DNA of 64,000 nt from Candidatus Poribacteria bacterium. GTDB taxonomy: Bacteria; Poribacteria; WGA-4E; WGA-3G. This document shows positions 5,183-38,636 of the stretch, one piece after another (within the stretch, counting starts at the first letter, position 1; each line of letters opens with the position of its first letter). The translations under genes were made by a program, and so were the position numbers. The stretch spans positions 25,347 through 89,346 of the forward strand of contig JAPPDN010001023.1 in NCBI GenBank assembly GCA_028824575.1. Direction: 5' to 3'. Below the pieces are notes generated by a model that saw nothing but the letters and a program-made list of their open reading frames with translations, was not told the DNA's origin and did not search any database.

Positions 5183-5923
5183 TTATCCAATCTTAACGAT
5201 TTCACCAGTTGTCAGTTTTTCTTGCTGCTCCTCGAGGTTATATCGGCGTTTTCTGAGTTCTGCTTGGAGTGTTTCTGAAGGGATGTCTTCCAGCGAGTTA
5301 TACATTTTGCCACTTCTGTAAGACTCAGAATCCAAACTGATTGCCTCTACCGCCTCGCGGGCATCAGCGTAGTTGACTCCCAAATACTGCTGTGTCGTCG
5401 AGACGTTCCGGTGTCCTAACAACTCTTTGACGAGATAGATGTCTCCGCTCTGCTCGTAAACCCGCTGGGCAAATGACTTACGGAGACTGTGCGTCGCGAT
5501 CTTGCCGTTCAAGCCTGCCGCGATAAACGCTTTTTTCAACATCTGGTGTGCGGTTTGCCGGTGCATCGGGACTGTTCCCGATTTGTGGCGCGACGGAAAC
5601 AACGGACGATCGGGTTTGGTGTTCTGGTACCGGTCCCTATGCCATTGAATCAGGCTGTCAATCGCGCCTCTGCCATCTCGGTTAACAGGGACGGCACGGC
5701 TGATCTCGCCGCCTTTTACGATGGATTTGTCAAAGAGCAGATCGGTGACGGCGGTGCGGTTCTGGTAGACATCTCCGATCGTTAGGCTGAGGAGTTCGGA
5801 GATGCGTCCGCCAGTCGAAACGCCGAGCATGAAGAGCCCGTGGTTGCGGGTCTTAAAGGTCCCGTCAAAACAGTCGGCGACTTTTCGGATTTCGTGAGTG
5901 TCAAGCGGGCGTGTGCCTTTCAT
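5183..5923 (-). CDS. Tyrosine recombinase / phage-integrase-family protein (small, Xer-like)
   Basis: C-terminal catalytic motifs ATHSLRKSFAQRVYE and LLGHRNVSTTQQYLG (H-x-x-R ... H ... Y). An AAAGGAAAAG RBS precedes the start. Confidence 0.9.
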   Translation of the reverse strand: MKGTRPLDTHEIRKVADCFDGTFKTRNHGLFMLGVSTGGRISELLSLTIGDVYQNRTAVTDLLFDKSIVKGGEISRAVPVNRDGRGAIDSLIQWHRDRYQNTKPDRPLFPSRHKSGTVPMHRQTAHQMLKKAFIAAGLNGKIATHSLRKSFAQRVYEQSGDIYLVKELLGHRNVSTTQQYLGVNYADAREAVEAISLDSESYRSGKMYNSLEDIPSETLQAELRKRRYNLEEQQEKLTTGEIVKIG

Positions 5924-5994: not shown

Positions 5995-6273
5995 CTACGC
6001 TATCGGTGGTTTACCGTGCTTGACAAATAAGGCATTTAGCGCGTCTTTGTGTAGTTCCTGGATCGTTGTGTCCTGCTCCGCCGCCAAAATTTTCAATTGC
6101 AGATGTGCTTCCTTGCCGTAATACACCGTCACAGGTTTTTTTCCGACACGTGAAAGGCTTTGTTGACGACCCACAGGTGGTGGTGCTTTTTCCTTAGCTT
6201 CGGGTTCTGTGGGTGACAACTTCCCGCCGCTCTGCTGTAAAGCGTCTTTGAGATCTGTTTTGGGTCCTGCCAT
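5995..6273 (-). CDS. ParG-like ribbon-helix-helix partition/centromere-binding protein
   Basis: 92-aa protein starting 2 nt after the parA stop. It has a disordered basic N-terminus and an RHH-like C-terminus KPVTVYYGKEAHLQLKILAAEQDTTIQELHKDALNALF. The position is typical of type Ib par loci. Confidence 0.55.
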   Translation of the reverse strand: MAGPKTDLKDALQQSGGKLSPTEPEAKEKAPPPVGRQQSLSRVGKKPVTVYYGKEAHLQLKILAAEQDTTIQELHKDALNALFVKHGKPPIA

Positions 6274-6274
6274 A

Positions 6275-6898
6275 CTACACTCCCTTCAATTCTCTGGATA
6301 AATACGCGTACAAAATCCCGACCTCTCGGCTCGCCTTCCCCGTGGGTTCGTATTCTTGAGCGGTTATACCATCGACAACAGAATGCGAGAAAGCGACACG
6401 ATCCCCAAGGGTGCAGGGCGCGCACGGAACATCATAAATTTCCAGTGCCTTTTTCGCCTTGATAACAACGCTCCCTGACGGCTTGACGCCGTTCAAGACG
6501 ACCCGGATCGGTACCTTCGCCATATTCGCGATCTGGATGGTATCACCGACAGCCTCTAAATCAAAAATTGACGGACGCGAGGGGATCACCGCCAAGTCAG
6601 AGACTTTTGCGGCATCAAGAGCGGCTGACTCCGAATGCGGGGACGTATCTAAAATACACAAAGACACGCCTCTTTCTTCGGCAGTCTCCAAGACCTGGTT
6701 GAGTAACGTCGAATGCGCTGAGATAACCACAGGTGAATCCCCTTCGCGCCGGTGACTCCACTTCACCGCGGAAGCCTGTGGATCTAAATCTATCAGGGCA
6801 GTCGTGTGTCCAGCCTTTTCCGCAGCGACGGCGAGATGCACCGCAAAAGTGCTTTTCCCGCTTCCGCCTTTCCGGGAGAGAATCGCTAACGTCTTCAT
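6275..6898 (-). CDS. parA: ParA-family partition ATPase (deviant Walker A)
   Basis: MKTLAILSRKGGSGKSTFAVHLA (KGGxGKS/T), LIDLDPQ and ILDTSP motifs. I chose the start at MKTLAIL (6898) over the ORF-track start at 6928. Confidence 0.9.
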   Translation of the reverse strand: MKTLAILSRKGGSGKSTFAVHLAVAAEKAGHTTALIDLDPQASAVKWSHRREGDSPVVISAHSTLLNQVLETAEERGVSLCILDTSPHSESAALDAAKVSDLAVIPSRPSIFDLEAVGDTIQIANMAKVPIRVVLNGVKPSGSVVIKAKKALEIYDVPCAPCTLGDRVAFSHSVVDGITAQEYEPTGKASREVGILYAYLSRELKGV

Positions 6899-6917
6899 CA
6901 AAATACCTCTATGTATA

Positions 6918-6997
6918 CATGCCAGCATGCCAGCATGCCAGCAAACAAGTGTGACATGATGACATCATACCAGCGTGCCAGTATGACATCATGCCAG
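6918..6997. repeat. Centromere/operator-like cluster of short direct repeats upstream of parA
   Basis: CATGCCAG occurs three times in tandem (6918-6941), followed by CATACCAG, CGTGCCAG and CATGCCAG. Two ATGACATCAT copies are interleaved. The cluster begins 20 bp upstream of the parA start. Confidence 0.5.
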
Positions 6998-7020: not shown

Positions 7021-7318
7021 TTAGATTCGCATCAGAGTTTCATAGGGTGGCAGAAAACTCCTGATCGGGTAATTGTCGGTGTAAGGAGCGTTGAAAACGA
7101 TATGGGTCTTGACCTGTGCCATATCCGCTATTTGGACAGTCAACTCGACAGCTTGTAAGTCAAAAATAGAAGGACGGCACGGGACGAGCGCGAAATGAGT
7201 GGCCTTTGCCGCATCCAGAGCTGCTGGTTCCGCGTGGGGTGATGTATCAATAATCGCAAGCGTGGCACCGTTGTGTTGCGCAGTATGCAAGATATGCCGT
7301 AGATTCTGAAAATCGTTT
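7021..7318 (-). pseudogene. parA fragment (internal portion only; no Walker A, C-terminus diverged)
   Basis: NDFQNLRHILHTAQHNGATLAIIDTSPHAEPAALDAAKATHFALVPCRPSIFDLQAVELTVQIADMAQV aligns with residues about 80-150 of the intact ParA (VSLCILDTSPHSESAALDAAKVSDLAVIPSRPSIFDLEAVGDTIQIANMAKV). It is bounded upstream by a stop and has no N-terminal ATP-binding region. Confidence 0.7.
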
Positions 7319-7384: not shown

Positions 7385-7813
7385 TTATGTTATGTCGTAT
7401 AACTGTAGTGCCGCTTGTAGTACCAAAGGGAGAGGTGCCGCAACCATTTGCCCACGATCGCGTCGCATGTAGGCCACTTGCTGCTCCCCTCGGGCGACAA
7501 GTTCCTCGCTTTCGCCGGTACGCCTGAAATACTCGAAAACCAATGTCACTCGGTTCTGCATACGGGTAGAAAGACGCATCCGGATCATCACTTCATCAAA
7601 CGCTTTTAGTTCCTCAAAATACTCACACGAACAACGGATCGTGGCAAGGGCAATGTCTCCAGCTTCAAGTTCCATAAGGACTTCGGGCGCATGGTCCCGA
7701 AGGAACATTTCTCGGCAGCGGCCCTGCCAACGAAGATGGTTCACATAGTACACGTTACCGACGAGGTTTGTTTCTTCAAACCCCACAATGTGTCTTAACT
7801 CATAGGTAGGCAT
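7385..7813 (-). CDS. Hotdog-fold (4HBT/YbgC-type) thioesterase; position matches the enediyne PKS partner thioesterase (SgcE10/CalE7/TEBC-like)
   Basis: MPTYELRHIVGFEETNLVGNVYYVNHLRWQGRCREMFL is a typical 4HBT N-terminus. About 142 aa, directly downstream of the PKS on the same strand. The start at 7813 has a GAGGAAG RBS. Confidence 0.75.
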   Translation of the reverse strand: MPTYELRHIVGFEETNLVGNVYYVNHLRWQGRCREMFLRDHAPEVLMELEAGDIALATIRCSCEYFEELKAFDEVMIRMRLSTRMQNRVTLVFEYFRRTGESEELVARGEQQVAYMRRDRGQMVAAPLPLVLQAALQLYDIT

Positions 7814-7960
7814 TGTCTTCCTCATGAAAACGTGACCGAGAAAGTTTAGCATTCATGCGCGCTACGGAATTAGTACAGGTATTGGTTGAATTGTAATTGT
7901 ATCCATCTTTGAGAGGAATCATTCGGCCAGTTTGCCTCTCTGAGTAGAATTTCTTATTGT

Positions 7961-10900
7961 TTAAACGAGCACAGCAAGGGTCAGGGGTTCCTCAGTTCCT
8001 CTAACAGGTGCCACAAAGGTGGCAGTGACGAGTTGTCCTGACCGAAACAAAATCCATCCATCAGGGGTAGCGGCGTGTAGCACCAATGGGGCATCTCTTC
8101 TTGCAGAAGCTTTCTTTAAGCACTCAGAAACCGTCCACACGCGAGTGGCAGCAAAAGCCAAGTCTTCTTCAGTCTCACGGGCAACAACCTTCGCTAATGA
8201 AAAACGATCGGGGCCGAGAATATCTCGCCAAACGGAAGAAGGTCTGGCAGCCACCGGTTCAATATCGCAACCTAGGGGCCCTGACCCAATAACTGCCAGT
8301 GTAAGGTCATCGGCGTGCGCCACGGATACCTCAAAATCACCAGAAACAAAGGGCTTTCCGTCGGGGCGCCTCCAAACAGACACCTTTTTGCCAAGGGCCC
8401 GCTGAATGGCCTGATTACTTTGTTGCTGTCGCTCTATTTTTGGTGAACGTTCGACGACAACAGCGGCTAAAGAGGTAGACACAAGTTCTCGCACACGGCG
8501 TTCAATATAAGGTCCCAAGAGCGATTCGACCCAGACATCTACCGGGGGAAAATCAACGACTTTGAGCCTAAGCCCGTCCCATTGCTCCAGTAATTGCCCA
8601 TCCACTCCTGTGACTTTTACGTCATAGGTGAAAATATCACCTTCATGGGATCGTTCATAGGCATGTAAAAACGCGTTTCCTAGTATCTGATCGGTAGAAG
8701 AATAAAGGCGTTCGATACCAATTGGTAACAATGTAGCATGAGGGACACAGACCTGAATCGCATGAATGGTAGCATCCCGTACCCCTGGATCGCTCATGAC
8801 TAATGTCTGGGGCAAGTACTTACTGAACCATGAGACCGTATCAGATAGAGCCACCTCGGCAAGGCACTCCCTAGCCATCAGTCGTCGGTAGCCACAGAGC
8901 CTCTGAAACCGTTCTCCTTGAAAGAGAATGCCCCCGTACAGGGAGTGTTTTGGGTCAATCGGCACAGATGGGAGATCCTCTACTGAAGTAACTCGATTTT
9001 TGTCTTTCGATTCTTCCGGAAGTCTTTTTGTTGATTCGCTTTTTTCATGAGTACTTTTGAGCCTGCACGTCGCCCGGAAGTAATCTACTTGGAAATCGGT
9101 TTCTTCGCTCCGCAGGACCACTTCAATGAGAGAATCCTCTTTGACAAGCGCAGCTAGGCGAATCGTTATCGGGTTGTTGGCCGACACGACCACTGGGCGA
9201 GCAAATTGGACGTTTTCAAAGATGGGCAAATTTTTTGTTCCCATCAGAGCCATTACCGCCTGTGCCATTGCTTCAAGCCCCATAACTGCAGGAAAAAGCC
9301 TTTCTCCCTGAAACACATGATCTAAAAGATATGGGTCTGTGCCACAAGACAATTCGGCATCAAGAACAATCTCCACACCCGGATAGAAGACACGGGGATA
9401 TTCAAGGAAACGGAGAAATGGCAGCTCGGTTTTTTCCATCTTCAGTGTCGGGGGTTCTCCAAAACGACCCGTCACCACTACAGCAACAGGACGGGATGAA
9501 GCATCACTTTGTCCATACTGGTTCATAAGATGGTGAAGCAGCCGGATGCCCTCATCCGGTGTAATAGGCGTAATTCCTTGTTGGACTAGGGCATCAATAC
9601 TTCCTAATCGCTCGCCCATTCCTATACCAGACCAGACAGACCACTTCACGGCAAGACATAGGCAATTTGGGTGGTGTGCTTGGAACTCTTCGGTCAAGGA
9701 GGTCAACCATTCGTTGGCAAGTGCGTAGTCCGCCTCGCCCTGCATGCCAGTAAGTGCAATGATAGAACTAAAGGTGAGCAAAAGTCGCAACCGTGAAGAA
9801 TTGACTGCTGCAAGCACGTTACGAAGTCCTTTTATTTTTGGTGCTAACGTTCGTTGAAATGCCGCTTCATCAAGGGAGAGAAGACGTTGTGGCACATTCA
9901 CCCCGGCACCGTGCAAGATTCCGGTGATTGGACCAAGTTCTGCTTCTGCCTTCTGGATGGCGGACTGGACGGACTCTGCTTCAGTAACGTCCGCCTGGAG
10001 ATAGCAGAAGTTGATCTTCGCCGCTTCCATCCGGGAAAGATTCGCAGCGAGGACGGCATCAGTTTCGGGATCGGATCTTCCCATGATAGCGAGGCTGACC
10101 CCTGTTTCTTTTGATAAAGAGAACGCACATTCGGACGTGATGCCTTTTCCACCTCCGGTGACGAGAAGAACATCCTCCGTATCCAAAAAATTGGTGGTTG
10201 ATGAGCCGTGCGCTACATCCAGCAACCGCAATACAGGTTCCCGTCTTGTCCCATTTGTGTCATAATGCGCCTCTGTGTACCCTGACGCAGCCCTCACTTC
10301 TGCGATCACCCATTCTATTGCCCGGGGATGGTCCTGTGGGATATCGATGACACATGTTGAAAATCTTGCTTTCTGCATGGTAGGATCAGTTAACACTTCC
10401 AAATGAAGTGTCCGAGCGAACGCAGCAGCACCCCCGCCATGCTGAAGCAGTACAAAACGCGTGAATTCGGCTTCTCTAAGAATCGCGCGGGATCCTTCCA
10501 ATAAGTAGTTAATATGGTCTTCTGAAGGGTTCGAGGGAAGACAGACGATAATTCCACCACCCCATTCCAATCGAGCAAACACCTCTTGTAGAGTTTGTGC
10601 GAAAGGATAGTCGGTCGGGGCAATGACTTTCCAAGTTGAGACATCTTGAGGTTGTTTTGAGTTCGGGAGGGCACGCTCCACGTACTCAACCGTGAAGGGG
10701 CGCACCCAAGTGTCAACCCCCGCGGGCAATTGCTCTATCACAGGTGTCCCTGGTGTAGCACCTGTATGCTTTTGTTCCTCTAACGCTTGGGCAACGGAGG
10801 CAACAGTGGCATCTGCATACTCCGTAGGGGCAACAGGTGGTGGCAAATCCAGATGTCTGTGAGCCTCGGTAACTAATTGACTCACAGAAATAGAATTTAG

Positions 10901-13900
10901 ATGAAGGTCGCTCAACAAGCGGTTGTTATCCTTTACAGCAGATAGTGGGAGCTCTGCACGTTGGGCTACAAGTTGGCGGATGAGCTCAGTTGTGGAAGGG
11001 TGATGGGTAGTTGGTGAGAGGTGAGTGTCTCCCTCTGGCATAGTTTTAGGTCGCGGTAGGGAAGCGATCGCCTCGGTTTCTTGACTTTGATTCTGGACAG
11101 GCAGAGCTCCTCCCATCGGTGCCACCGTTTCGGGCAGCGGGGCAAGTTCGCAGGGATTAACAAAGAAACGCGGCTGCCAATTGAGAGGGAATGGGCAGGT
11201 AAAACGATCGGCGAACAGTACTTTGTGGTTTACTTTAACCCCCAGGACAAACGCCGCTCCTACCACACCCAATAATCCTGTTAGCGACCTACCACAAGTA
11301 TCTAGGGAAACAACGGGGGTTTCGACTTGATCGCGGATGAGTCCACTCAGGACGTGACCCGGACCGACCTCAATGAATAGATCCACGTCCCCTACCCTGG
11401 TGAGTGCCGATGTAAATCGTACTGGCTCTGTCACCTGATGACAGAGAAGTTCGGCTATATCCGTATCTGGCATAAGAGGTGCCCCGGTCACCGTGGATAA
11501 GACCGTGCGCTGCAAAGGGCGGAAATCCTCACTGGCAAGGTGTTCGGATAATAGTGGGGCGGCTGCCTCAACTAGCGGAGAATGGAAAGCATGTGATACT
11601 GGCAAATTGACAACCTTTAATCCCTTTTCCCGGGCGCGTTTGATAATCTGCGCCACAGCGGTGGCTTCTCCAGAGATAACCGTTTGACGAAAAGAGTTCA
11701 AACCCGCAATGGCAACGCAGTCTCTCGGATTTTTCTCTACTTTCTTTTTCTGCCCGGACTTCTTATAAAAATCTAACAACAGTTCCTTCACGTCTGTTTC
11801 TCCAGCTTCAATACTAGCCATCGCACCGTTTTTCTTGCTCAACTCTTCCATCACCTGACCTCGAAGTGTAGCAACACGCTGCAGAGCCTCTGCATCGATC
11901 ACAGAAGCCCAGTGAAGAGCGGTTAATTCACCTAAGCTGTGTCCGATTGCCACAGACGCTGTGATATCAAGTGCCTCCAGGATCCGTAAACCTGAGAGAG
12001 ATGCGGTAACGATCGCTGGCTGTGCGACCTTCGTTGTCTCGGCATCACCTTCCGCCAGGAGCGTTACTTGGTCGTACAACTCTCGGACAAAGTTGAACCG
12101 ATGCCCCCAGATGCCGGGGTCTAGTCGAACTGGTGCCCCTTGTCCAGGAAAAAGAAAGGCGAGTCTTGGCACCATTTTGCCCATCCCCAGGAACACGCCT
12201 GAGTCGCTATCTATACGTGTTTGTGCTTCCTCGGTGAGCCAGGTCCGTAACATATCCAAACGACTTACCAGCATCTCAGGGCTTTTTGCAATAATAGCTG
12301 CTCGGATGACCCCCTCATCGAGTCTTCTCTCCAACTCAGAACCCAGGTCTGTCATCTCAGAAAAGGAAAGTTTTTGAGCAAAAGTCAACAGGTGTTCTAT
12401 CTGCTGCCGCAAATTATAGATGTCCGGCGCACTGAACAGGAATAACTCGGTATCCTGTGCTGTGGAGAGAAGCATGCGCTCCCGCGCGTTGAGTTTTTTG
12501 CGTCGTAAGACGGAGCCCCCTTCCAGCACAAGATGCGTATTAATTCCCCCAAAGCCCATCGCACTGACCCCCGCACGTAATAGTTGATCTTCTTGCCAGA
12601 GTTTCCCTTTGGGAAGCACTCTGAGGACAGATGATTTTTCGGTCAGCATTGGGTGGGGATTTGAACAGCCTGTCGTCGGGGGTAAGAGCTGAGTGTACAA
12701 TGCCATTGTTGCCTTAATCAACCCCGCGACCCCTGCAGCAGCCTTCGTGTGGCCAATATTCGCCTTAATAGAGGAAATAAAGGCGGGGCTTGCAGTAGAG
12801 GAGACTTCTCGACGAGCTCGTGACAGTGTTTGGAGTTCCGTAGTATCACCGACGCTAGTGCCGGTACCGTGCCCTTCAAAGTAAGGCACCGTTTCAACCC
12901 CAAACCCTGCGCGGCGATAGGCCCTACGTATTGCCAGAAGCTGTCCTTCAACTTTTGGGCGGGTGATACCACCGCTCCCATCGGAGGAGATGCCCCAGCC
13001 GCGAATGACTGCGTAAATACGGCAATCCTGTGCTACAGCATCTTGATGCCGCATTAACACCACAAATCCGCAACCTTCTCCAGGCCAAAAGCCATCGGAA
13101 CGGGTATCGTAGACTCGCATCTCTCTGGAGGTCAGTGCCCCAGTTTTGGCGAACCCGACTAGCTCGAAGGGATCCAGACTCAGATCAACTCCACCCGCCA
13201 GTGCCACATCCAAATCACCTGCCACAAGGGCGGAACACGCATTAGCGACTGCTAGCAGAGAGCTAGAACACGCCCCGTCTACCGTGTAGCCGCCCCCTTT
13301 GAGGTCAAAGTAGTTACAAATGCGCCCTGCGATAGTATTGGACAGACTGCCAGCGAGCGTTTCCGAGCCAACAGATGGGAAAGGTGCTTTGTACTGAGTT
13401 TCCAATTCCTCAAGGAACGCCCGCCGTTGCATAGGATCTTTGCCCTCCTCAATCAACAGAGACTCCACTACCCGGCGGACATAAGGCCAGCGCAGCCGTA
13501 ACGCATCTGCCCGTGAAAATTCACCTGTGAGTGTGTTCCCCAAAAGCACGCCAGTCGCTTCACGAGGGAGGGATTTGCCTTCTGGAAAACCAGCATCTGC
13601 TAGTGCTTTCGTGGCAACATCCAATGCAAGCCAATGTGCCATGTCCGCTTCCCGAAAAGTACTTCCGGAGACGCGGAAGCGTACTCGATCGAATTCATAA
13701 CCCTCAATGAGTGAGGCTTGGGCAATATAGGTAGAGTCAGGGGCATCTCTGTCTGTTGAGAGGTAATCTTCTAAACGCAAACGCGATTGAGGCATGCGCC
13801 TGAACGCCCGGCGTAGAGCGAGAACATTCTCCCACAGTTCGAGAGGGTTTCGGGCATCTGGATACTCACAAGCCATTCCAACGATAGCAATTTCAGGCAT

Positions 13901-13903
13901 CAT
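7961..13903 (-). CDS. Iterative type I polyketide synthase of the enediyne (PKSE) architecture: KS-AT-ACP-KR-DH-PPTase
   Basis: KS: DGACSSSLLAV, EGHGTGTSVGD, NIGHTKAAAG. AT: FLFPGQGAP, GHSLGE, HAFHSPL. ACP-like: DLHLNSISVSQL. KR: VTGGGKGITSE ... YALANEWL. DH: LLDHVFQGERLFPAVMGLE. C-terminal PPTase: VSVAHADDLTLAVIGSGPLGCDIEPV and WTVSECLKKA. The 1980-aa length matches PKSE proteins. Confidence 0.9.
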   Translation of the reverse strand: MMPEIAIVGMACEYPDARNPLELWENVLALRRAFRRMPQSRLRLEDYLSTDRDAPDSTYIAQASLIEGYEFDRVRFRVSGSTFREADMAHWLALDVATKALADAGFPEGKSLPREATGVLLGNTLTGEFSRADALRLRWPYVRRVVESLLIEEGKDPMQRRAFLEELETQYKAPFPSVGSETLAGSLSNTIAGRICNYFDLKGGGYTVDGACSSSLLAVANACSALVAGDLDVALAGGVDLSLDPFELVGFAKTGALTSREMRVYDTRSDGFWPGEGCGFVVLMRHQDAVAQDCRIYAVIRGWGISSDGSGGITRPKVEGQLLAIRRAYRRAGFGVETVPYFEGHGTGTSVGDTTELQTLSRARREVSSTASPAFISSIKANIGHTKAAAGVAGLIKATMALYTQLLPPTTGCSNPHPMLTEKSSVLRVLPKGKLWQEDQLLRAGVSAMGFGGINTHLVLEGGSVLRRKKLNARERMLLSTAQDTELFLFSAPDIYNLRQQIEHLLTFAQKLSFSEMTDLGSELERRLDEGVIRAAIIAKSPEMLVSRLDMLRTWLTEEAQTRIDSDSGVFLGMGKMVPRLAFLFPGQGAPVRLDPGIWGHRFNFVRELYDQVTLLAEGDAETTKVAQPAIVTASLSGLRILEALDITASVAIGHSLGELTALHWASVIDAEALQRVATLRGQVMEELSKKNGAMASIEAGETDVKELLLDFYKKSGQKKKVEKNPRDCVAIAGLNSFRQTVISGEATAVAQIIKRAREKGLKVVNLPVSHAFHSPLVEAAAPLLSEHLASEDFRPLQRTVLSTVTGAPLMPDTDIAELLCHQVTEPVRFTSALTRVGDVDLFIEVGPGHVLSGLIRDQVETPVVSLDTCGRSLTGLLGVVGAAFVLGVKVNHKVLFADRFTCPFPLNWQPRFFVNPCELAPLPETVAPMGGALPVQNQSQETEAIASLPRPKTMPEGDTHLSPTTHHPSTTELIRQLVAQRAELPLSAVKDNNRLLSDLHLNSISVSQLVTEAHRHLDLPPPVAPTEYADATVASVAQALEEQKHTGATPGTPVIEQLPAGVDTWVRPFTVEYVERALPNSKQPQDVSTWKVIAPTDYPFAQTLQEVFARLEWGGGIIVCLPSNPSEDHINYLLEGSRAILREAEFTRFVLLQHGGGAAAFARTLHLEVLTDPTMQKARFSTCVIDIPQDHPRAIEWVIAEVRAASGYTEAHYDTNGTRREPVLRLLDVAHGSSTTNFLDTEDVLLVTGGGKGITSECAFSLSKETGVSLAIMGRSDPETDAVLAANLSRMEAAKINFCYLQADVTEAESVQSAIQKAEAELGPITGILHGAGVNVPQRLLSLDEAAFQRTLAPKIKGLRNVLAAVNSSRLRLLLTFSSIIALTGMQGEADYALANEWLTSLTEEFQAHHPNCLCLAVKWSVWSGIGMGERLGSIDALVQQGITPITPDEGIRLLHHLMNQYGQSDASSRPVAVVVTGRFGEPPTLKMEKTELPFLRFLEYPRVFYPGVEIVLDAELSCGTDPYLLDHVFQGERLFPAVMGLEAMAQAVMALMGTKNLPIFENVQFARPVVVSANNPITIRLAALVKEDSLIEVVLRSEETDFQVDYFRATCRLKSTHEKSESTKRLPEESKDKNRVTSVEDLPSVPIDPKHSLYGGILFQGERFQRLCGYRRLMARECLAEVALSDTVSWFSKYLPQTLVMSDPGVRDATIHAIQVCVPHATLLPIGIERLYSSTDQILGNAFLHAYERSHEGDIFTYDVKVTGVDGQLLEQWDGLRLKVVDFPPVDVWVESLLGPYIERRVRELVSTSLAAVVVERSPKIERQQQSNQAIQRALGKKVSVWRRPDGKPFVSGDFEVSVAHADDLTLAVIGSGPLGCDIEPVAARPSSVWRDILGPDRFSLAKVVARETEEDLAFAATRVWTVSECLKKASARRDAPLVLHAATPDGWILFRSGQLVTATFVAPVRGTEEPLTLAVLV

Positions 13904-14844
13904 GATTCAGACCCCCTAATGGCAGTTGGCCCCTGTACTGCAGTCCCACTGCTCACCGCTCGGCTTAGGACCACGGATCGGACGTAAATGCCCAAACCTC
14001 GTAGCGCACAGACGACTGTCAGGGCGAAGAATAACCCAAATACCACATGCACCATCATCAGTAACGCGTAAGCGGCAGCAACACCTCCCCCGAATATCAC
14101 CTGTTTTAGCGGGTCACTTGGGGTCGTGGATGGATCTGTCACCATATAGAAGGTGTAGAGCACAAATGCTAGACCGGTCATGGGCAGCCAAGCCGCGACG
14201 GTGGGCGTGCCGAATATGACGCTTCTGAGAAGTGCCTGTATAGCAAAGCCACCTAACCAGGCAGCAATCAGAGGTATTCGCTTTGTGAACCGGACGTTGA
14301 GGAAGGTACCGGAGATCACAATCAATCCGGGTAAAATCCAATCGCCCATGCCGCTGAGATTTTCCGTGAAATGGTAAGGAGGCGCGATACCAACCCAAGG
14401 AAAGAGCAGAAGTGTTAGAGTAATTCCAAAGTTAGAGGGATTGAAGAAATGCCGACTTCCGTTCCTAAGGGAAACACGAAAGATGACCTTGGAGGACATC
14501 GCAGCAGCGGTAGCAAAGGCGATCGGAAACAATCGATCATTTGCGTAAATCAGCATGGCAACAGCAAGTCCCGTGATATGTGCAGACAATAAGAAATCGA
14601 TGAGTGTAGAAAAACCACCCGCGAAACGTGGTGGGCGTCGGTTTGTTAAAGCATCAATAAACTCGATCAGAAGCTCCGTACTGTAGGCGGTAGCCAATGC
14701 AATCAACGGCTGTCCCCATGATTGTTCAAAACCAAAAACAGTATGGCCTAAGATATTGAAGGTAGTAATGGCAAGGGCAAAGCGTCGCAATCCTCCTTTA
14801 CGGTTTGATTGGTACCAAACATCTTTTTTGTTGTTTTGGGTCAT
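13900..14844 (-). CDS. Polytopic membrane protein, UnbU/SgcE5-like by position and topology
   Basis: 314 aa with about 8 hydrophobic helices. Its stop overlaps the PKS start as ATGA (13900-13903), implying translational coupling. The placement immediately upstream of the PKSE gene matches the conserved enediyne cassette order. Confidence 0.65.
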   Translation of the reverse strand: MTQNNKKDVWYQSNRKGGLRRFALAITTFNILGHTVFGFEQSWGQPLIALATAYSTELLIEFIDALTNRRPPRFAGGFSTLIDFLLSAHITGLAVAMLIYANDRLFPIAFATAAAMSSKVIFRVSLRNGSRHFFNPSNFGITLTLLLFPWVGIAPPYHFTENLSGMGDWILPGLIVISGTFLNVRFTKRIPLIAAWLGGFAIQALLRSVIFGTPTVAAWLPMTGLAFVLYTFYMVTDPSTTPSDPLKQVIFGGGVAAAYALLMMVHVVFGLFFALTVVCALRGLGIYVRSVVLSRAVSSGTAVQGPTAIRGSES

Positions 14845-15318
14845 TATTCAGTCCTTTCACCACTTACACCAATTTTGGGGTGAGAGATTCTCTTGCCAAA
14901 GCGATTTATTAAAGCAAAAACTTATATTAATTACTAAAGTGTGGGCAATTTTTAAAAAAATAAGATGCAAAAAAGCAGATATCCTTTCGGAAATATCCCC
15001 ATATTTTGAAAGGATTGTAAAAACGGACCGCCTTTTCTGCCTAGAACGTATCCTAACAGATTTTCAGCATTTCTTCAACACACAAACTTTGCGCTTTTCC
15101 CAGCGTTTGTCATCGGACTGATAACCGACACAAAGGCGGGCATCTTGACACATCTCTATCAGGCAAGTACTTTGCAGACGCGACATTGGTCTTTTCCGAA
15201 GTTCCTTTCCCGGGGGCATTGCGAAAACAATGCTTAAGTCGCCGATAATGGCTCTCAAAGACCTGGTCCTTTTATCAGGATAACTATCAAAGGTGTAGGA
15301 GGAAAATGAAAGCACAAT

Positions 15319-17286
15319 CTACTTGACCTCCGTCCCCAGCAGCACAGTGTACCATCCCGGCAGAAGGTGTAATGTGTCCCTACAGACGCGGCCACTTGTA
15401 TCTCGCCAGTGCATCTCGACTCTCAGCTTGGTATCATCAGAGAGATGACCGAGTCCAAAGTGCAGAGCAGGACTACGTACACCAGAGTGGCCATTTCCAC
15501 CGTCCACCTGGCCCACAAGTTGCCGGCCATCTGGGAGGTAAACGGTTACAGCAGTGCCAATCGCAGGACGCCCGTAAGTGTCTGTCTCTGGATGTCCTGA
15601 ACGAGCAAAAGTCTTTGACGCATATTCCTTCTGGAGTGGCAACAGGAGATGGAGTCCCAAAAACGCACCAGGGTTGGGACTATCATTCCGGATGAAAACT
15701 GAAGGTTCCCATTGGTTAGCATAAACAAAGTCCAGATCGCCATCGCCATCCACATCAGCCGTTGCAATGCCACGAGTCACCATCGACTCATCGAGATCAA
15801 GTTCATGGGCTAGGTCATAGTACCTACCATCTTTAGCTCGCGCGAAGAAAGGATTGTGCTGTTTTCCGCTGAGGTCATCACCAGGTTGAAGACGGGGCCA
15901 ACTTTTGGGATAGGACAGCAGTTCGTCGTTTCCCATCGCCAATTCGTGTAACTCGGGCCAGCGATTAACTTCACCTTTCACAAAGCCTGTCGCCTGAAGT
16001 GCCTCGAGTACACCGTCGTTGTCGAAATCGCCTAGCCTAGATTCCCAGCCCCATCCGCTTCGGGATAGTCCGAGCGGCTCACTACAGTCTACATAGGGTG
16101 CGATACCTTTCTTCATGAGATCGACTTCGCCCGTACTGAGAAAGGCAAAATGGCTTTCTTCTAGCGCATATTCATCTGCGATGTTACTAACATAAATGTC
16201 GAGCCATCCGTCACCGTTAAGGTCACCAAAGTCAACACCCATGCCCTTAAACGAATCGCGACCCAGCACCTTTGAGTTGGGAGTCGTGAACTGTTTTTTT
16301 CCATCCAAACGCACAAACTTGAGTTCTCCTTGAGTTGAGCAGTTGTGCATCAAACGATCGGGTCCAAAATCATGGGCAAAATAGATTTCGGGAAGGAGGT
16401 CCCCATCGAGATCCGCAGCCCCAACTGCGAGCGTCCAACCCTGAGAAACTTGTTTGTCCAAAACGCCCCGTGCTTCCCAAAAATGCACCGTCGGTTGGTT
16501 TCCAGCAGTTGCCTCTGTCCATAGAAACAAGCGATTGGTCCCAGCGTTAAATGCCCGAGACATGGAATGTTGCATTTGCACACTGTCTGTTGCATGGGAG
16601 TCCAAGATGCGGTCGCCATCCCGAAAGTAATTGCCAATGATTACGTCCACATGCCCGTCCCCATCCAAATCAGCTAATGTAGCGGCATTGGTGTTCCAGC
16701 GTTCGACTTTCGGTACGAACTCGCGCCTCACAAAGCTTAAAGCATTGAGGCACTTTAGACTTGATGCGGATTCCTGTTTTCGGAGGAAAATGACAGGGGT
16801 TCGTCCCCAATAGTAGACGAGGACATCCATCAGTCCATCCTCGTTCAGATCCCCTAGTAAGGTGCCCATCGGTGCCGTTGTGGCCGGATCATAAGGAAGT
16901 GGTGCGGGATCCAACGCGAAAGGTTTATAACGCACAGGCGTTATTTCAACCTGAGCGACAATAACCTGGTCTGTCCTCGTATCCACATAACAAACGTCGT
17001 TGGGGAGTCCGTCCCTATCCAAGTCACCCAAGGCAACGGAGGCACCAACTGAAGAGACCCAAGCCTTTATGTGCTCCAGACTTGGATGAACTGCTCTGAC
17101 CAATTGGTGGGACTTTCCGGGCAACTCCGGTACCCTTTTTTTTGTGAATCGGAAGCGAGCCGCGAGGTGGGTGCGTTCAACTTCGGACAACTCTGGTAGC
17201 CGTGTGAATCCATATAGAACGACAATCAGCACGATTGCGACAATTTGCTTTATATAACGCAGAAAGAAACGGGCTAATCCTGTCAT
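15319..17286 (-). CDS. FG-GAP/VCBS repeat protein with C-terminal ASPIC/UnbV domain (UnbV/SgcE4-like)
   Basis: N-terminal signal anchor IVAIVLIVVLYGF. There are seven DxDxDG-type blades (DLDGDGHVDVIIGNYF, DLNGDGWLDIYVSN, DVDGDGDLDFVYANQ and others). C-terminal GGNGHSGVRSPALHFGLG is typical of the ASPIC/UnbV domain. ATGA overlap with the upstream gene at 17283-17286. Confidence 0.8.
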   Translation of the reverse strand: MTGLARFFLRYIKQIVAIVLIVVLYGFTRLPELSEVERTHLAARFRFTKKRVPELPGKSHQLVRAVHPSLEHIKAWVSSVGASVALGDLDRDGLPNDVCYVDTRTDQVIVAQVEITPVRYKPFALDPAPLPYDPATTAPMGTLLGDLNEDGLMDVLVYYWGRTPVIFLRKQESASSLKCLNALSFVRREFVPKVERWNTNAATLADLDGDGHVDVIIGNYFRDGDRILDSHATDSVQMQHSMSRAFNAGTNRLFLWTEATAGNQPTVHFWEARGVLDKQVSQGWTLAVGAADLDGDLLPEIYFAHDFGPDRLMHNCSTQGELKFVRLDGKKQFTTPNSKVLGRDSFKGMGVDFGDLNGDGWLDIYVSNIADEYALEESHFAFLSTGEVDLMKKGIAPYVDCSEPLGLSRSGWGWESRLGDFDNDGVLEALQATGFVKGEVNRWPELHELAMGNDELLSYPKSWPRLQPGDDLSGKQHNPFFARAKDGRYYDLAHELDLDESMVTRGIATADVDGDGDLDFVYANQWEPSVFIRNDSPNPGAFLGLHLLLPLQKEYASKTFARSGHPETDTYGRPAIGTAVTVYLPDGRQLVGQVDGGNGHSGVRSPALHFGLGHLSDDTKLRVEMHWRDTSGRVCRDTLHLLPGWYTVLLGTEVK

Positions 17287-18266
17287 CTTTTATTCTCCTT
17301 CGTAAAATGATCACGAATTCGCCGCCGCCAGACCTCATAAGCGGGTAAATTGCTATCGGATGGAAGATCCTTCAGAGCAACATCCGTGATGTAAGCAGCG
17401 GCTTTTGCCGACGTACCACACAGAATTTCACAGGCGAGTTCTGTATGCGGCGCGGGGTTCCTGGCTCGTTGACGCGCTTTTGCCGCAAAAGCTGCTCCTT
17501 GTGCCATATGAGATTGATGCACATCTGCTTGAGTCCGCAAAGTTTCTATAGCCGCACCATCCACACCGCCCGCATAAGCACAGGCAAGCCCTACGCCTGC
17601 CCAAAGGTCCTCATGCCGTGGTGGGGCGAAGGCCTTGATAGTTTTAGGAATCCTCTCAACATCGGCACCGTCCACAAACCAAAGGCTTCGCCCCAATCCC
17701 TGATCAAAAACCCGCATAGCGTAGTCAGAAAGTCGCTTAGGAGTCACATGCCCTTCAACGAAACGGGGCCAATGGAAGTATCCGGAGTGAAACCCATAAC
17801 CATCCTGAGCAAGCCAGCGCAGTAGCGGGTCCAAGCGCGCCAGAGCCCGCGTAACGTCAAGGCGAAGCCAAGGAAGCCTTGCAAGCACCCAACCAACGCC
17901 CACATGCATCATGTACACATGAGCCTCCCCTGGACCGGAAAGAAAGTCGTACAGACGTTTTCTGCGAAACGGGGAGAGATAATCAAGGAGGCAGAGGCCC
18001 ATCGCTGCTCCCTCGAATGCGAACCCGCGATGCTCAATATCAACAGCGAAAAGTCTTCTCTCAAGTATCTCTGGTTCGTCATCGAGAAGTGCCGCATGAT
18101 ATCCTACTAGGAAAGTGTGACCAATTTCCTCCAATCGCTGTTGTGCCCCAACGGGGCCCTTCCGAAAGCCACGCCGGGAAAAGGTCACTTCCTGTGGAGA
18201 GATGCCTAAGAGATGTTTCCGAATGTCCCCGAGAAAAGAAATTCCTGCTACAAGTGTTTTTCCCAC
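17283..18266 (-). CDS. Conserved hypothetical protein, UnbL/SgcE3-like (probably DUF1702, from memory) by position and size
   Basis: I chose the GTG at 18266, which is preceded by a perfect AAGGAGG with a 5-nt spacer; the ORF-track TTG at 18290 has no RBS. About 327 aa, translationally coupled to the UnbV-like gene. Assignment rests mainly on synteny. Confidence 0.6.
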   Translation of the reverse strand: MGKTLVAGISFLGDIRKHLLGISPQEVTFSRRGFRKGPVGAQQRLEEIGHTFLVGYHAALLDDEPEILERRLFAVDIEHRGFAFEGAAMGLCLLDYLSPFRRKRLYDFLSGPGEAHVYMMHVGVGWVLARLPWLRLDVTRALARLDPLLRWLAQDGYGFHSGYFHWPRFVEGHVTPKRLSDYAMRVFDQGLGRSLWFVDGADVERIPKTIKAFAPPRHEDLWAGVGLACAYAGGVDGAAIETLRTQADVHQSHMAQGAAFAAKARQRARNPAPHTELACEILCGTSAKAAAYITDVALKDLPSDSNLPAYEVWRRRIRDHFTKENKR

Positions 18267-18496
18267 TGAAACCTCCTTAAAAATATCCAAGAAATACGAC
18301 GATACGGGAGAAGAGTGTTGAAAAAGCGTTGGATCGTCCGATAACTCCCCCTTCTGAGGTACAACGCAATAGGTTCAGCATCGACACACGTCTCATCATC
18401 GCAAGGGGGCCCGGACACTACACAAGAAAACTGACGGAACTGTGTCATTGATAAATGTGGATACAAAACATTAAAGAGTGATAAAATGCCGGACAT
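18248..18496 (-). CDS. Small hypothetical protein (82 aa) heading the E3/E4 transcription unit
   Basis: ATG at 18496 preceded by AAGGAG. It overlaps the revised E3-like start by 19 nt. I recognise no family. Confidence 0.35.
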   Translation of the reverse strand: MSGILSLFNVLYPHLSMTQFRQFSCVVSGPPCDDETCVDAEPIALYLRRGSYRTIQRFFNTLLPYRRISWIFLRRFQWEKHL

Positions 18497-18620: not shown

Positions 18621-20873
18621 TCATAGATTCCACAAATAAGAGATTTTGGCGACGATAACTCGATCCGAAAACCGAAGTCTGTCGGCGGAAGTGTCCCAAT
18701 CCTCATTATAAGCAATGAAGAAATGGCTTTTTGGACTGTATTCCCAACCGACAAGAAAACTGATAAGATACTTGAGGCTTATTTCTCTCTGATCGTAATA
18801 CATCCGGTTCCAGAGGGCTTGGGCGAATAACCGACAAAAAAGATCCCTCGTCAACAGATAAGTAACTCGAAAAGAATTGGCAAGAAATTTCCCGTCTGTT
18901 TCGCCATCCGGATTTGAAGTTTGGGCATAGCCAGTGGTCAACTCAAAAGTTAGGTTATTTTTAGGACGCAGGGTGCCGGAGAGATTAAAACCGCTTTGCT
19001 TACCGACGTACTTTTGGGAAAAATTATAAAAGTCGCCCATATTCAATTGCAAGGTCGTGAAAATTCGCTTGGCTGTATCGGTTCTCAGGAAAATGCTTCC
19101 TGTTTTCGCCCAGAAAAAGTCCGTGAGTTCAGATTCCTTGGAGTAACTAAACATCACTCCAAACTGCTCCAACACCGACTCTCGAAATCTCATCTGAACC
19201 CACATAATGTTTGACCAAAGGAGGATATCTGGATCAAAAAAAGGGCTGATTTTGAGGTTAGGGTTCTTTAACGCCAAATCGAGGAAGTAGTCGTCGGTAT
19301 AAAGTCCTTGAAACAGATGTCCTTGTGTCCCAATGAAAAGTTTCTCAAGTCCTAACACAGAAGGACGGGGAGTATATTCGAGTTTAGTCCCAATACCCTG
19401 CCACCCTCGGTAGAGCTCCTTTTGAAGGAAACCTGTTTGATTCGCTGAAAATTCTGGTTCCATCCGATCCATAGAGACTTCTGTGTTGAAGCGGTCAGTT
19501 TTTCTGGTGAACGTAAGCAAATACGCTCTGGCAGGTTCGAGTTTGCTCAAGGCGTTCCAACTTTGAGCGATTTGTCCGATGAAAAACGCATTTTCTCCGA
19601 CTTCAACGTTGGCATCCAAACCGAGGACCCGTTGGTTTTCATCCATCATTTCTTTCCCAGCATACAGTATGCCAATGTTAGATTTTTCAAGGATATCCCG
19701 CTTTGTTCTGAGGATGGTGAACAACGCCCGTTCTTTCGTTTCTGTTTCATCTTGGAGACCAAAATAGTTCCAGTCCCCTGTCTGGCTCGAAATAAAGCCC
19801 AGGGTGTAGTTTCCGACTTTGCCAGTCACATTAGTTCCCCATAAGATATCCCCTCTATTACCGATTCGGCGGCTATAGTAAAGTTCCAACGGGGTTGCAA
19901 AAATGCTATTTCCTTCAATGAAAAACGGACGTTTCTCCGCGAACCTTGTCGGAAATCGGGTTAGGTTGATTTCCAATTGATCGGCTTCCACCTGAGCAAA
20001 GTCTGGATTGACCATGCTACTTAACCGAAACTGATTGGTAAGTCTGTATTGAAAATCAATACCGAGGTCACTTCGACCTTTAACGCCTTTCCCTTGACTT
20101 TCTGTCGTCCCTCCCATAAAGTACGGATAAACTTCCACGTGTTCGCTTGATTGGATACCTTCTAATCCAATCAAATGTCCAAGTGCTGACATCCGGGTCC
20201 AGTATCCCCCATCACTGCCGAGGGGTTTCCATGCGTCTGTTTCCCGTTTTCGTCGAATGAACCGTTCAAAGTTAATGCCCCAAACCTGCTTTTCCGTATC
20301 AGTAAAGCGAAAATTACTGAACGGAATTTTGAATTCGGCAGTCCACCCCAAGTCATCAATATTACCTTCTGCCCACCAAACGCCCTCCCAAGAGGAATCC
20401 GCTTTTGAGTCATCATATCGATAATTGTCGTCTTTCACTCCACCAGGGGTACAGACAAACTTATATCCCGTTCGATGGTCGTGATAAGGATCGATAAAGA
20501 AAGAGATGACATCAGAATCAAACGCATTACCACGGCGGCTGATCCGGTTTACAATGTTCTCTGGTTCTGAGTCGTAACACCGAAATCCAACATATAAGTG
20601 ATACCGATCGTAAACAATATAACAAACCGTCTCCTCAGAGGCAACTTTCTCCGGAAAATCCTTCCAAACGAAACCACTGACGGGAGAAGCTTTCTTCCAT
20701 GCCTCATCGTTTAAAATTCCGTCAATCTTAGGAGGTGAGACTTCCTTTAGTGGGTATGCTCTAGCAGTATAGTTCCCTAAACCATCTTCATGAGCGTTGA
20801 GTGGAATTGAGGGCGGAAGAGATACGAAACTCATAATGAATAAAGCAAATTTCAATCGGCACATCCGGGTCAT
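18621..20873 (-). CDS. CBM9-like / DUF5916 family outer-membrane-type protein
   Basis: Signal peptide, then KIDGILNDEAWKKASPVSGFVWKDFPEKVASEETVCYIVYDRYHLYVGFRCYD (CBM9-like N-domain). A long beta-rich C-terminal region ends AKISYLWNL. AAGGAG RBS. Confidence 0.7.
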   Translation of the reverse strand: MTRMCRLKFALFIMSFVSLPPSIPLNAHEDGLGNYTARAYPLKEVSPPKIDGILNDEAWKKASPVSGFVWKDFPEKVASEETVCYIVYDRYHLYVGFRCYDSEPENIVNRISRRGNAFDSDVISFFIDPYHDHRTGYKFVCTPGGVKDDNYRYDDSKADSSWEGVWWAEGNIDDLGWTAEFKIPFSNFRFTDTEKQVWGINFERFIRRKRETDAWKPLGSDGGYWTRMSALGHLIGLEGIQSSEHVEVYPYFMGGTTESQGKGVKGRSDLGIDFQYRLTNQFRLSSMVNPDFAQVEADQLEINLTRFPTRFAEKRPFFIEGNSIFATPLELYYSRRIGNRGDILWGTNVTGKVGNYTLGFISSQTGDWNYFGLQDETETKERALFTILRTKRDILEKSNIGILYAGKEMMDENQRVLGLDANVEVGENAFFIGQIAQSWNALSKLEPARAYLLTFTRKTDRFNTEVSMDRMEPEFSANQTGFLQKELYRGWQGIGTKLEYTPRPSVLGLEKLFIGTQGHLFQGLYTDDYFLDLALKNPNLKISPFFDPDILLWSNIMWVQMRFRESVLEQFGVMFSYSKESELTDFFWAKTGSIFLRTDTAKRIFTTLQLNMGDFYNFSQKYVGKQSGFNLSGTLRPKNNLTFELTTGYAQTSNPDGETDGKFLANSFRVTYLLTRDLFCRLFAQALWNRMYYDQREISLKYLISFLVGWEYSPKSHFFIAYNEDWDTSADRLRFSDRVIVAKISYLWNL

Positions 20874-20997
20874 GAAGTATCTCCTTCTAGATTGTACCCC
20901 GCTGTTTCCTGCTCGGGGTGTGGCGTGTATAGAAAAATATCGGTTTTCGCAAAATCTGCCTGCATCATCTGTTCATGAAAGCATGTGAGCTTAACAT

Positions 20998-37003: not shown

Positions 37004-37100
37004 TTTATAATCTCCGCCGAATACCGGTCACTACGTAAAGAACGCGGTCATAACTCAGAATACCAATAGATGTAAAGACTCAATAGAGATTTGCCATCTG

Positions 37101-37679
37101 CTAATATTTGAGTGCCGGCTCCCAATTATTTGGACCCTCGGCGAGCAAATCAAAAAGATGCCAAACTGCACAGAAGGGATCACCCGGACCTAAATCTGCC
37201 TTTGAAATTCGAGCGATTCCGCCGTTAGTCTTTCTGTAAAAAGTTGAAACACCAGGGAGCCAACCGTCTTCGTTCTTGAAACCCATATCTTCTGTAAACT
37301 TCGATCCTTCACTGGAATACATCTGAAATCGCCAACCCCTTTTTTGAGCAAAAGTGGCTTGTCTCTCAGGAGAATCTGGTGATACTACAACAAACTCCGC
37401 ACGGCTTTCCAAGTGTTGAAGGACCCCATTAAATCCATCGGCCCACATGGTACAATAAGAACAACTGCTGCCCATAGTATGAATGACAATCAAATCATCT
37501 TTGTCATCAAACATCTCAGAAAGCTTGACCTTTTTACCACTTGGTCCCTTTAAAACATAGTCTGGCACTTCTTGTGGTGGCAGCTGTCTTCTAAGATCTC
37601 TCAATCTTTTTTGCCTTTCCATAAGTTCGGTCTCCAAGCAAGCAATTTCATTCTTAAGGGTTGTTTGATTTAATACCAT
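37101..37679 (-). CDS. DUF899 thioredoxin-fold protein
   Basis: N-terminal coiled segment ELMERQKRLRDLRRQLP, CxxC-like SCSYC, and the size and layout of DUF899. Perfect AAGGAGG RBS. Confidence 0.7.
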   Translation of the reverse strand: MVLNQTTLKNEIACLETELMERQKRLRDLRRQLPPQEVPDYVLKGPSGKKVKLSEMFDDKDDLIVIHTMGSSCSYCTMWADGFNGVLQHLESRAEFVVVSPDSPERQATFAQKRGWRFQMYSSEGSKFTEDMGFKNEDGWLPGVSTFYRKTNGGIARISKADLGPGDPFCAVWHLFDLLAEGPNNWEPALKY

Positions 37680-38596: not shown

Positions 38597-38636
38597 AGTA
38601 AATTCCGCGTTGGTCAAAAGTCAAGTCGATTTATTT

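Follow-up and report, generated by a model that had tools for sequence, protein, structure and literature searches.

An intact and probably functional minimal enediyne polyketide synthase cassette in an uncultured Candidatus Poribacteria bacterium

The window analyzed here is a stretch of 64,000 nt of contig JAPPDN010001023.1 (assembly GCA_028824575.1, Candidatus Poribacteria bacterium). Five open reading frames (ORFs) on its minus strand (7385-18266, 10.9 kb) follow one another in the order E3-E4-E5-PKSE-TE, and we consider it likely that they constitute an intact, functional minimal enediyne polyketide synthase (PKS) cassette through which this uncultured bacterium makes a small metabolite of the polyene or polyyne type. 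The cassette is a further member of a known, widespread and chemically uncharacterized group, and its points of interest are its host phylum and its bare, compact form. The host assignment is the label given by NCBI to the metagenome-assembled genome (MAG), and it agrees with the non-actinomycete context proposed in an earlier reading of the window made from the sequence alone (hereafter the sequence-only reading). Two of the proteins are already public, as MDE0686441.1 ('type I polyketide synthase') and MDE0686444.1 ('DUF1702 family protein'), and the source scaffold is 93 kb long (ENA assembly ERZ23499966). Few natural products are as cytotoxic as enediynes, which are used as payloads of antibody-drug conjugates. 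To our knowledge every characterized producer is an actinomycete, with some compounds coming from marine invertebrates whose bacterial sources are unidentified; Poribacteria are a candidate phylum known mainly from sponge symbionts. The features of the cassette are as follows.

17283-18266, minus strand: E3 (UnbL/SgcE3-like, DUF1702), 327 aa, with a GTG start 8 bases behind AGGAGG
15319-17286, minus strand: E4 (UnbV/SgcE4-like; FG-GAP/VCBS propeller plus ASPIC/UnbV domain), 655 aa
14845-15318, minus strand: non-coding spacer between E4 and E5, 474 bp, AT-rich at its 3' (E5) end
13900-14844, minus strand: E5 (UnbU/SgcE5-like polytopic membrane protein, RnfD/NqrB-related), 314 aa
7961-13903, minus strand: PKSE (iterative type I enediyne-type polyketide synthase), 1980 aa
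7385-7813, minus strand: TE (E10/CalE7/DynE7-type hotdog thioesterase), 142 aa

The ORF coordinates and Pfam matches, the latter well outside what chance would give, reproduce the five gene sizes, the canonical order and the single strand given in the sequence-only reading, and both of the ATGA overlaps that it described are present (E3/E4 at 17283-17286 and E5/PKS at 13900-13903). It had placed the outer border of the cassette at 18496; the genes do begin at 7385 but end at 18266, and the remainder is an 82-aa fragment of an IS4-family transposase that lies outside the cassette. Neither a frameshift nor an internal stop codon interrupts the approximately 10.4 kb of coding sequence. For two of the genes a longer ORF is available: E3 would have 335 aa if read from the TTG at 18290, and TE 155 aa in its longest ORF (we take the latter protein as 142 aa because CalE7 and SgcE10 align with it from Met14 of this ORF onward). 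The genes are not packed into a single tight unit, because the non-coding spacer splits E4 from E5 at a junction that measures less than about 110 bp in most related loci. The spacer matched no Rfam family, contains no repeat and showed no similarity to plasmids; it contains three sigma-70-like sites, a regional count that is not above chance, and it is possibly an internal promoter region.

The synthase comprises six domains, with boundaries and active-site residues as listed.

12518-13894, minus strand: KS, residues 4-462, with Cys212, His345 and His385
11153-12454, minus strand: KS-AT linker and AT, residues 484-917, with GHSLGE (Ser656) and a malonyl-type HAFHS motif; Pfam Acyl_transf_1
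10781-10984, minus strand: ACP, residues 974-1041, with LHLNS (Ser1004 at 10892-10894)
9629-10171, minus strand: KR, residues 1245-1425, with GGGKGI and Tyr1393; Pfam KR, 9.4e-32
8555-9373, minus strand: DH, residues 1511-1783, with HxxxGxxxxP containing His1529; Pfam PKS_DH_N, 2.5e-10, and PS-DH, 2.8e-15
7964-8521, minus strand: integrated Sfp-type PPTase, residues 1795-1980, with GCDIE (1878-1882) and WTVSECLKK (1923-1931)

These are the six domains that the sequence-only reading had named, and each can be recognized by its own line of evidence (KS, AT, KR and DH by Pfam, the ACP by motif, and the PPTase by fold). The KS matches ketoacyl-synt (4.5e-53) and Ketoacyl-synt_C (7e-33) and bears the motifs DGACSSS, EGHGTG and NIGHTK. 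When the AT region alone was compared with the PDB, the AT of DynE8 scored 186 bits and the next match 98 bits. The single ACP is weak in Pfam (PP-binding, E = 0.0012); its LHLNS (Ser1004) aligns with LHMSS of SgcE (Ser974), and the motif pattern is present in all 57 of the long sequences checked. At the C-terminus the Pfam matches (ACPS at 0.0025, and 4PPT_N) are sub-threshold and in the correct order. An AlphaFold model of residues 1795-1980 has a predicted local distance difference test (pLDDT) score of 93.3, and the top 34 PDB matches that Foldseek returned for it are all Sfp-type PPTases (3e-8 to 6e-6), followed by a gap to 0.01; a profile search also gave Sfp as the top PDB match, with the Mg-binding motifs GCDIE and WxxxECLKK aligned with GIDIE and WSMKES of Sfp. 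The question raised in the sequence-only reading, namely whether this region is a PPTase at all, is thus answered by an Sfp-type fold. The catalytic motifs of all six domains are intact and match those of SgcE.

Comparisons over the full length place the synthase among the enediyne PKSEs. It is collinear with SgcE over 100% of its length at 47.3% identity, and it is 55-62% identical, again full-length, to metagenome proteins, many of which carry the JGI name 'enediyne polyketide synthase'; the most similar full-length synthases come from Acidobacteriota, Planctomycetota, Cyanobacteria and unnamed metagenomes. Against a set of 72,556 plasmids, the full-length matches (44.6-47.3% identity) were Streptomyces PKSE genes, mostly annotated beside UnbU- or RnfD-like (E5) genes, and other PKSs matched in KS-AT only, at 34% identity or less. 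A tree of KS-AT was built by neighbor-joining only, with two other type I PKSs as the outgroup and without CalE8, full-length DynE8, PfaA or HglE among the references; in it the window's synthase, 53 non-actinomycete sequences and three Streptomyces PKSEs (SgcE included) form one clade with 100% bootstrap. The phylogeny proposed in the sequence-only reading is therefore answered in part: the synthase groups with SgcE and other PKSEs, apart from the two type I PKSs, and the division between 9- and 10-membered enediynes falls outside the tree's references (comparison with 10-membered systems is limited to the DynE8 AT and the CalE7 and DynE7 thioesterases, which do not discriminate). Phyla are freely intermixed within the clade, a pattern that would fit horizontal spread over a longer timescale.

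The remaining four proteins are likewise homologues of characterized cassette proteins. The TE (Pfam 4HBT_2) retrieves CalE7 (1.7e-42), SgcE10 (4i4j, 'ACP-polyene thioesterase'; 1.1e-41) and DynE7 (1.5e-32) from the PDB, with the next family at 5e-6; it is 53% identical to SgcE10, and 50 columns are invariant in an alignment of six sequences. E3 matches DUF1702 at 2.4e-120 and is 41.8% identical to SgcE3 (E = 5e-69), and its homologues are named 'enediyne biosynthesis protein E3' by JGI. The AF2 model of E3 is an all-alpha repeat (pLDDT 92) of about six helix pairs, which contain GxG; no PDB fold resembles it significantly (best E = 0.49), so that it offers no mechanistic clue, and the DUF1702 fold, that of an enediyne-essential family, appears from this model to be structurally uncharacterized. 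E4 matches FG-GAP_3 (1.5e-29), FG-GAP and UnbV_ASPIC (1.5e-11) and is 45% identical to SgcE4 over its full length; its C-terminus matches CRTAC1 (9etn) at 1.8e-7, and hydropathy indicates an N-terminal membrane anchor at residues 7-25. E5, with about 9-10 hydrophobic segments, is barely above the cutoff of Pfam NQR2_RnfD_RnfE (29.8 bits versus 27.7) and is 52% identical to SgcE5 and 51% identical to the 'enediyne biosynthesis protein UnbU' of S. clavuligerus. No NCBIfam model matched E3, E4 or E5. The Pfam results and the full-length homology with SgcE3, SgcE4 and SgcE5 agree on the DUF1702, FG-GAP plus UnbV_ASPIC and UnbU families expected from the sequence-only reading, and none of the three ORFs proved to be of another family.

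Two actinomycete cassettes serve as points of reference. In the C-1027 locus (Streptomyces globisporus plasmid SGLP1, NZ_CP013739.1), SgcE3, SgcE4, SgcE5, SgcE and SgcE10 are full-length homologues of the window's proteins (42, 45, 52, 47 and 53% identity, respectively), and the order E3-E4-E5-PKSE, the KS-AT-ACP-KR-DH-PPTase architecture and the active-site motifs are shared. The two differ in host phylum and composition (the window's GC content is about 50%) and in the position of the TE, which lies 6.5 kb downstream of the PKS in C-1027 but directly after PKSE here; the C-1027 locus additionally has SgcE2 (a second DUF1702 protein), the flavin reductase E6, the P450 E7, the AraC regulator E8, the GMC oxidoreductase E9, and E11. 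The C-1027 cluster also includes an apoprotein and large tailoring sets. Closer in layout is a cryptic cassette on the S. clavuligerus megaplasmid, annotated as DUF1702, VCBS protein, 'enediyne biosynthesis protein UnbU', type I PKS and acyl-CoA thioesterase, which has the identical compact order E3-E4-E5-PKSE-TE, with TE right after the PKS, at 42-55% identity. This cassette is nevertheless actinomycete and high-GC, stands beside MFS transporters and regulators, and belongs to a Streptomyces clade (100% bootstrap) apart from the window.

The usual actinomycete accessory genes are missing from the window, as the sequence-only reading had remarked. No match at E <= 1e-3 was obtained anywhere in the 64 kb when SgcE6, E7, E8, E9, E11, DUF5987 and SgcR were searched by tblastn, and SgcE2 matched E3 only. 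When the larger ORFs of the window (for the most part 90 aa or longer) were scanned with Pfam, no P450, no epoxide hydrolase, no sugar, aromatic or beta-amino-acid pathway and no apoprotein appeared; small ORFs were covered less than exhaustively, and the apoprotein was sought by Pfam without a reference sequence. Partner genes do recur among 80 related loci, in which we found an SgcE8-like AraC regulator 23 times, an SgcE7-like P450 9 times, and MMPL, ABC/HlyD and AcrB efflux proteins 12, 13 and 7 times, respectively; E6, E9 and E11 occur in none of the 80. The window copy is at the bare end of the spectrum of non-actinomycete cassettes. Elsewhere in that spectrum, one related locus (L002) encodes an AlkZ-like DNA glycosylase (20622-21710) 4.4 kb from its cassette; AlkZ-like enzymes are a known means of self-resistance against natural products that damage DNA. 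In seven related loci an NAD-dependent DNA ligase is encoded close to the cassette; it was considered and rejected as a self-resistance gene, because all seven are Acidobacteriota (mostly Thermoanaerobaculia) and the adjacency is probably lineage synteny.

Outside the actinomycetes, cassettes of this kind form a large radiation scattered across taxa, and the window copy is one of them. In a scan of one genome per species with the TE as query, at least 526 species-level genomes encode a relative of the TE, and the best 80 of these are all non-actinomycete and span about 10 phyla; approximately 40 related loci with enough flanking sequence share the order E3-E4-E5-PKSE-TE. Of the 61 GenBank cassettes known in 2014, seven were from outside the Actinomycetales, and a 'cassette only' class was noted (PMC4480864); the non-actinomycete hosts included Cyanothece PCC 7822, Haliangium ochraceum, Herpetosiphon aurantiacus and Methylomicrobium alcaliphilum (Shen 2015, PMC4480864), and the methanotroph Methyloprofundus INp10 also carries the five genes (PMC8788690). 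Metagenomic mining has found enediyne KS clades from outside Actinomycetota (PMC10308959), and 160 of 210 metagenomic full-length enediyne KS domains lie outside the actinobacterial lineage. The rarity implied in the sequence-only reading is thus not upheld, because cassette-only non-actinomycete loci number in the hundreds and are already published (PMC4480864, PMC10308959). With the published cassettes our locus shares the five genes, a host outside Actinomycetota, the frequent cassette-only form and an uncharacterized product; it differs in that Candidatus Poribacteria is not in the published host lists (we found no paper linking Poribacteria to an enediyne cassette), and in that many of those cassettes have AraC, P450 and efflux genes, whereas the window copy is without them and is bordered by remnants of an insertion sequence and a partition module. 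By itself the locus leaves knowledge of the family unchanged. What the hundreds of non-actinomycete cassettes make is a directly testable question, to which this locus adds a candidate phylum; with its five intact genes in 10.9 kb of moderate-GC DNA it is close to the minimum for such loci and makes a practical construct for heterologous expression.

The chemistry that we propose follows that of the homologues, whose steps should operate here too because every motif is conserved. SgcE and CalE8 are known to phosphopantetheinylate themselves through their C-terminal domains. By analogy, the Sfp-type domain at the C-terminus of the window's PKSE would attach phosphopantetheine to its own ACP at Ser1004, and the single KS-AT-ACP-KR-DH module would then iterate on malonyl units to build an ACP-bound conjugated polyene. 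In SgcE/SgcE10, DynE8/DynE7 and other characterized systems, PKSE and TE give 1,3,5,7,9,11,13-pentadecaheptaene, the compound from which enediyne cores actually derive (PMC9992847), and the hotdog TE would here release the polyene as the same compound. Soluble E3, membrane-anchored E4 and polytopic E5 may subsequently turn the polyene into a polyyne-type intermediate, a step that we place at the membrane because of the N-terminal anchor of E4 and the hydrophobic segments of E5. The actinomycete counterpart of that intermediate would be a diiodotetrayne; work by Gui et al. in 2024 reportedly found that E3, E4 and E5 convert the heptaene to the diiodotetrayne common to all enediynes. No cyclization, tailoring, apoprotein, regulator or resistance gene of the known clusters was found in the 64 kb, which makes a small metabolite derived from a polyene or polyyne the most likely end product, rather than a decorated 9- or 10-membered enediyne. 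A bolder version, which we put forward tentatively and regard as possible rather than probable, is that the five genes are self-sufficient, so that, in Poribacteria as in hundreds of other non-actinomycete species, the bare cassette would give rise at the membrane to a small, reactive polyyne or ene-yne that is possibly halogenated. If this were true, actinomycete enediynes would be a later elaboration of an older and far more widespread chemistry, and the window copy, with none of the regulator, P450 and efflux genes in the 64 kb, would offer nature's cleanest test of it.

Mobile-element remnants, which the sequence-only reading had overlooked, lie on both flanks of the cassette.

18248-18496, minus strand: N-terminal fragment of an IS4-family transposase, 82 aa, not part of the cassette, overlapping the start of E3
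7087-7302, minus strand: parA pseudogene fragment directly downstream of TE, its frame broken by stop codons
5183-6928, minus strand: plasmid-type partition/resolution module (ParA, 6275-6928; ParG-like RHH protein, 5995-6273; tyrosine recombinase, 5183-5923)

The IS4 fragment has no Pfam match, and by tblastn against the plasmids it matched only cyanobacterial (Nostocales) IS4 or unspecified transposases (30-34% identity, best E = 3e-6). The parA pseudogene is 55.6% identical to residues 76-147 of the neighboring ParA (E = 6e-24). Pfam assigns the module to CbiA/AAA_31/ParA, Antitox_RHH (3.6e-18) and Phage_integrase (5.5e-29), the recombinase being without its N-terminal domain. The GC content of the cassette is 50-53%, against 40-46% in its surroundings, and the excess is mostly at codon positions 1 and 2; GC content at third codon positions (GC3) is 0.46-0.52 in the cassette, 0.36-0.48 in most host genes and 0.57-0.62 in ParA and the recombinase. 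Neither flanking direct repeats nor a tRNA gene were found around the cassette. The contig could be chromosomal or a large plasmid. Upstream of E3 are genes for a DUF5916/CBM9 protein, a 532-aa protein with eight transmembrane segments, an ABC-2 exporter, glycosyltransferases, a metallophosphoesterase and an NTP_transf_5 protein, which together are an ordinary exopolysaccharide-type locus plus exporter and which we read as bystanders to the cassette. Beside the cassettes of 83 other loci (about 60 of them with usable flanks), these neighbors have no counterpart except a generic ABC ATPase at 25-39% identity.

The nearest relative is a 22-kb contig, SRR33343646_119102, which carries E3-E4-E5 and the start of PKSE together with orthologues of four window genes (o294, 65% identity; CYTH, 63%; OrnDC, 61%; and an Rph-like gene, 59%). 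There E3 is about 7.5 kb from OrnDC, and the interval between the cassette and the shared genes holds a HEAT gene, an SRPBCC gene, two PhyH genes and a methyltransferase gene, with no polysaccharide genes of the window type. The PKSE fragment of this contig is sister to the window's PKSE at 68% bootstrap. Its cassette proteins are 63-71% identical to those of the window, which is no closer than those of distant phyla, and its PKSE fragment (69.8%) could not be named the nearest by identity: the 643 residues in question are 70-71% identical in unrelated metagenome proteins, so that identity alone is uninformative on which cassette is nearest. A recent genomic island, to which the composition and the mobile remnants had pointed, now seems less likely to us, given the small GC3 difference, the lack of flanking repeats or a tRNA gene, and the related contig on which the cassette has orthologues of OrnDC, CYTH and the Rph-like gene in its vicinity. 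We take the cassette to have resided in this lineage and region for a longer time, probably with reshuffling of the DNA on either side.

Several of these observations weigh against a working cassette with a small polyene- or polyyne-type product. E3 has no recognizable catalytic fold; the 474-bp spacer parts E3-E4 from E5-PKSE-TE at a junction that is 3 bp long in the nearest relative; and the genes lie between a truncated IS4 transposase on one side and a parA pseudogene with a recombinase module on the other, because of which the cassette may be silent cargo. Both the AraC regulator and the P450 that accompany 23 and 9 of the 80 related cassettes are absent in the window; parts of the MAG beyond the window may encode accessory genes; and no enediyne has so far been isolated from a non-actinomycete bacterium (PMC10308959). 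Were the genes for cyclization, tailoring, carrier and resistance indeed elsewhere, or unrecognizably different, the cassette could make a true cycloaromatizing 9- or 10-membered enediyne. All known actinomycete enediyne clusters have the five-gene cassette as their hallmark (PMC4480864), all five proteins are well conserved, and the SgcE7-like P450s, SgcE8-like AraC regulators and single AlkZ-like glycosylase of some related loci hint at further processing and genotoxicity in the wider group. Such a product is nonetheless unlikely in view of the empty searches of the 64 kb for SgcE6, E7, E8, E9, E11, DUF5987 and SgcR homologues, the Pfam scans of the larger ORFs that found no P450, epoxide hydrolase, sugar pathway or apoprotein, the occurrence of E6, E9 and E11 in none of the 80 related loci, and the fact that no such compound is known from a non-actinomycete.

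That the cassette is instead silent or decaying cargo of a mobile element, yielding nothing, would account for the IS4 fragment abutting E3, the pseudogene and ParA-RHH-recombinase module after TE, the raised GC content, the insertion-like spacer and the lack of a nearby regulator, but we hold it to be quite improbable: the coding sequence is intact with all catalytic motifs kept and two translational couplings preserved, the compositional excess sits mainly at codon positions 1 and 2 with only a modest step in GC3 (0.46-0.52 versus 0.36-0.48), and direct repeats and a tRNA gene are lacking at the flanks. A related genome, moreover, keeps the cassette in the same neighborhood with a sister PKSE, which argues for long-term retention under selection. 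The sequence-only reading had suggested that the product is possibly associated with the cell envelope, which as an explanation would be a polyene or lipid made together with the neighboring DUF5916 protein, ABC-2 exporter and glycosyltransferases. These genes are adjacent to E3, directly upstream on the same strand, E4 and E5 are themselves membrane proteins, and efflux systems (MMPL, RND and ABC/HlyD) recur beside related cassettes. The idea is unsupported because the envelope and exporter neighbors (the 532-aa membrane protein among them) are not conserved beside other cassettes, neither in the approximately 60 related loci with usable flanks nor in the nearest relative, which has HEAT, SRPBCC, PhyH and methyltransferase genes at that position; an IS4 fragment and a compositional step also separate E3 from DUF5916, and we rate this product as very unlikely. 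Finally, PUFA-type (polyunsaturated fatty acid) and enediyne KS domains are known neighbors in KS phylogenies, and the second-best NCBIfam model for the synthase is PfaA (TIGR02813), which is also an iterative type I KS-AT enzyme with KR and DH chemistry making polyunsaturated chains. A synthase of the PUFA or heterocyst-glycolipid type can all the same be given almost no credence: the PfaA score is half of its cutoff (506.7 bits versus 1010.1, with the best-scoring stretch at residues 5-590), and the window's enzyme has a single ACP in place of tandem ACPs, no PfaB, PfaC or PfaD partners, an integrated PPTase, a DynE8-type AT, full-length collinearity with SgcE, and an adjoining CalE7-type TE with E3, E4 and E5. 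Together with the 100% PKSE clade, this refutes, within the limits of the references, the grouping with PUFA synthases that the sequence-only reading had allowed for. A small polyene- or polyyne-type metabolite made by an intact cassette remains our preferred interpretation.

Further variation is visible among the related loci. In about ten related genomes E3 directly precedes PKSE-TE, without adjacent E4 and E5, and in one of these (L008) divergent E4-like and E5-like genes (approximately 30% identity) are found downstream of TE. On the related contig described above, the SRPBCC gene, the two PhyH dioxygenase genes and the methyltransferase gene are right beside E3 and are possibly lineage-specific tailoring genes; they are about 30% identical to the PhyH and methyltransferase genes of the window, which belong to a group at 33107-39428 that also includes the ornithine/DAP decarboxylase (OrnDC), the Rph-like PEP-utilizing enzyme and a DUF899 protein. 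The Rph-like enzyme was considered as a taxonomic marker and set aside, because it has a single relative at 59% identity, with its other matches at about 30-33% over the full length, and is thus uninformative on the phylum. Two NTP_transf_5 genes, at 15-569 (truncated at the window edge) and 29523-31025, enclose a region with the glycosyltransferase and ABC-2 exporter genes, the mobile module and the cassette itself. Farther along, at 59086-62016 on the plus strand, the window encodes a 976-aa protein in which an N-terminal ECF-type sigma-70 domain (regions 2 and 4) is fused to a large BNR/Sortilin/Ycf48-like propeller region.

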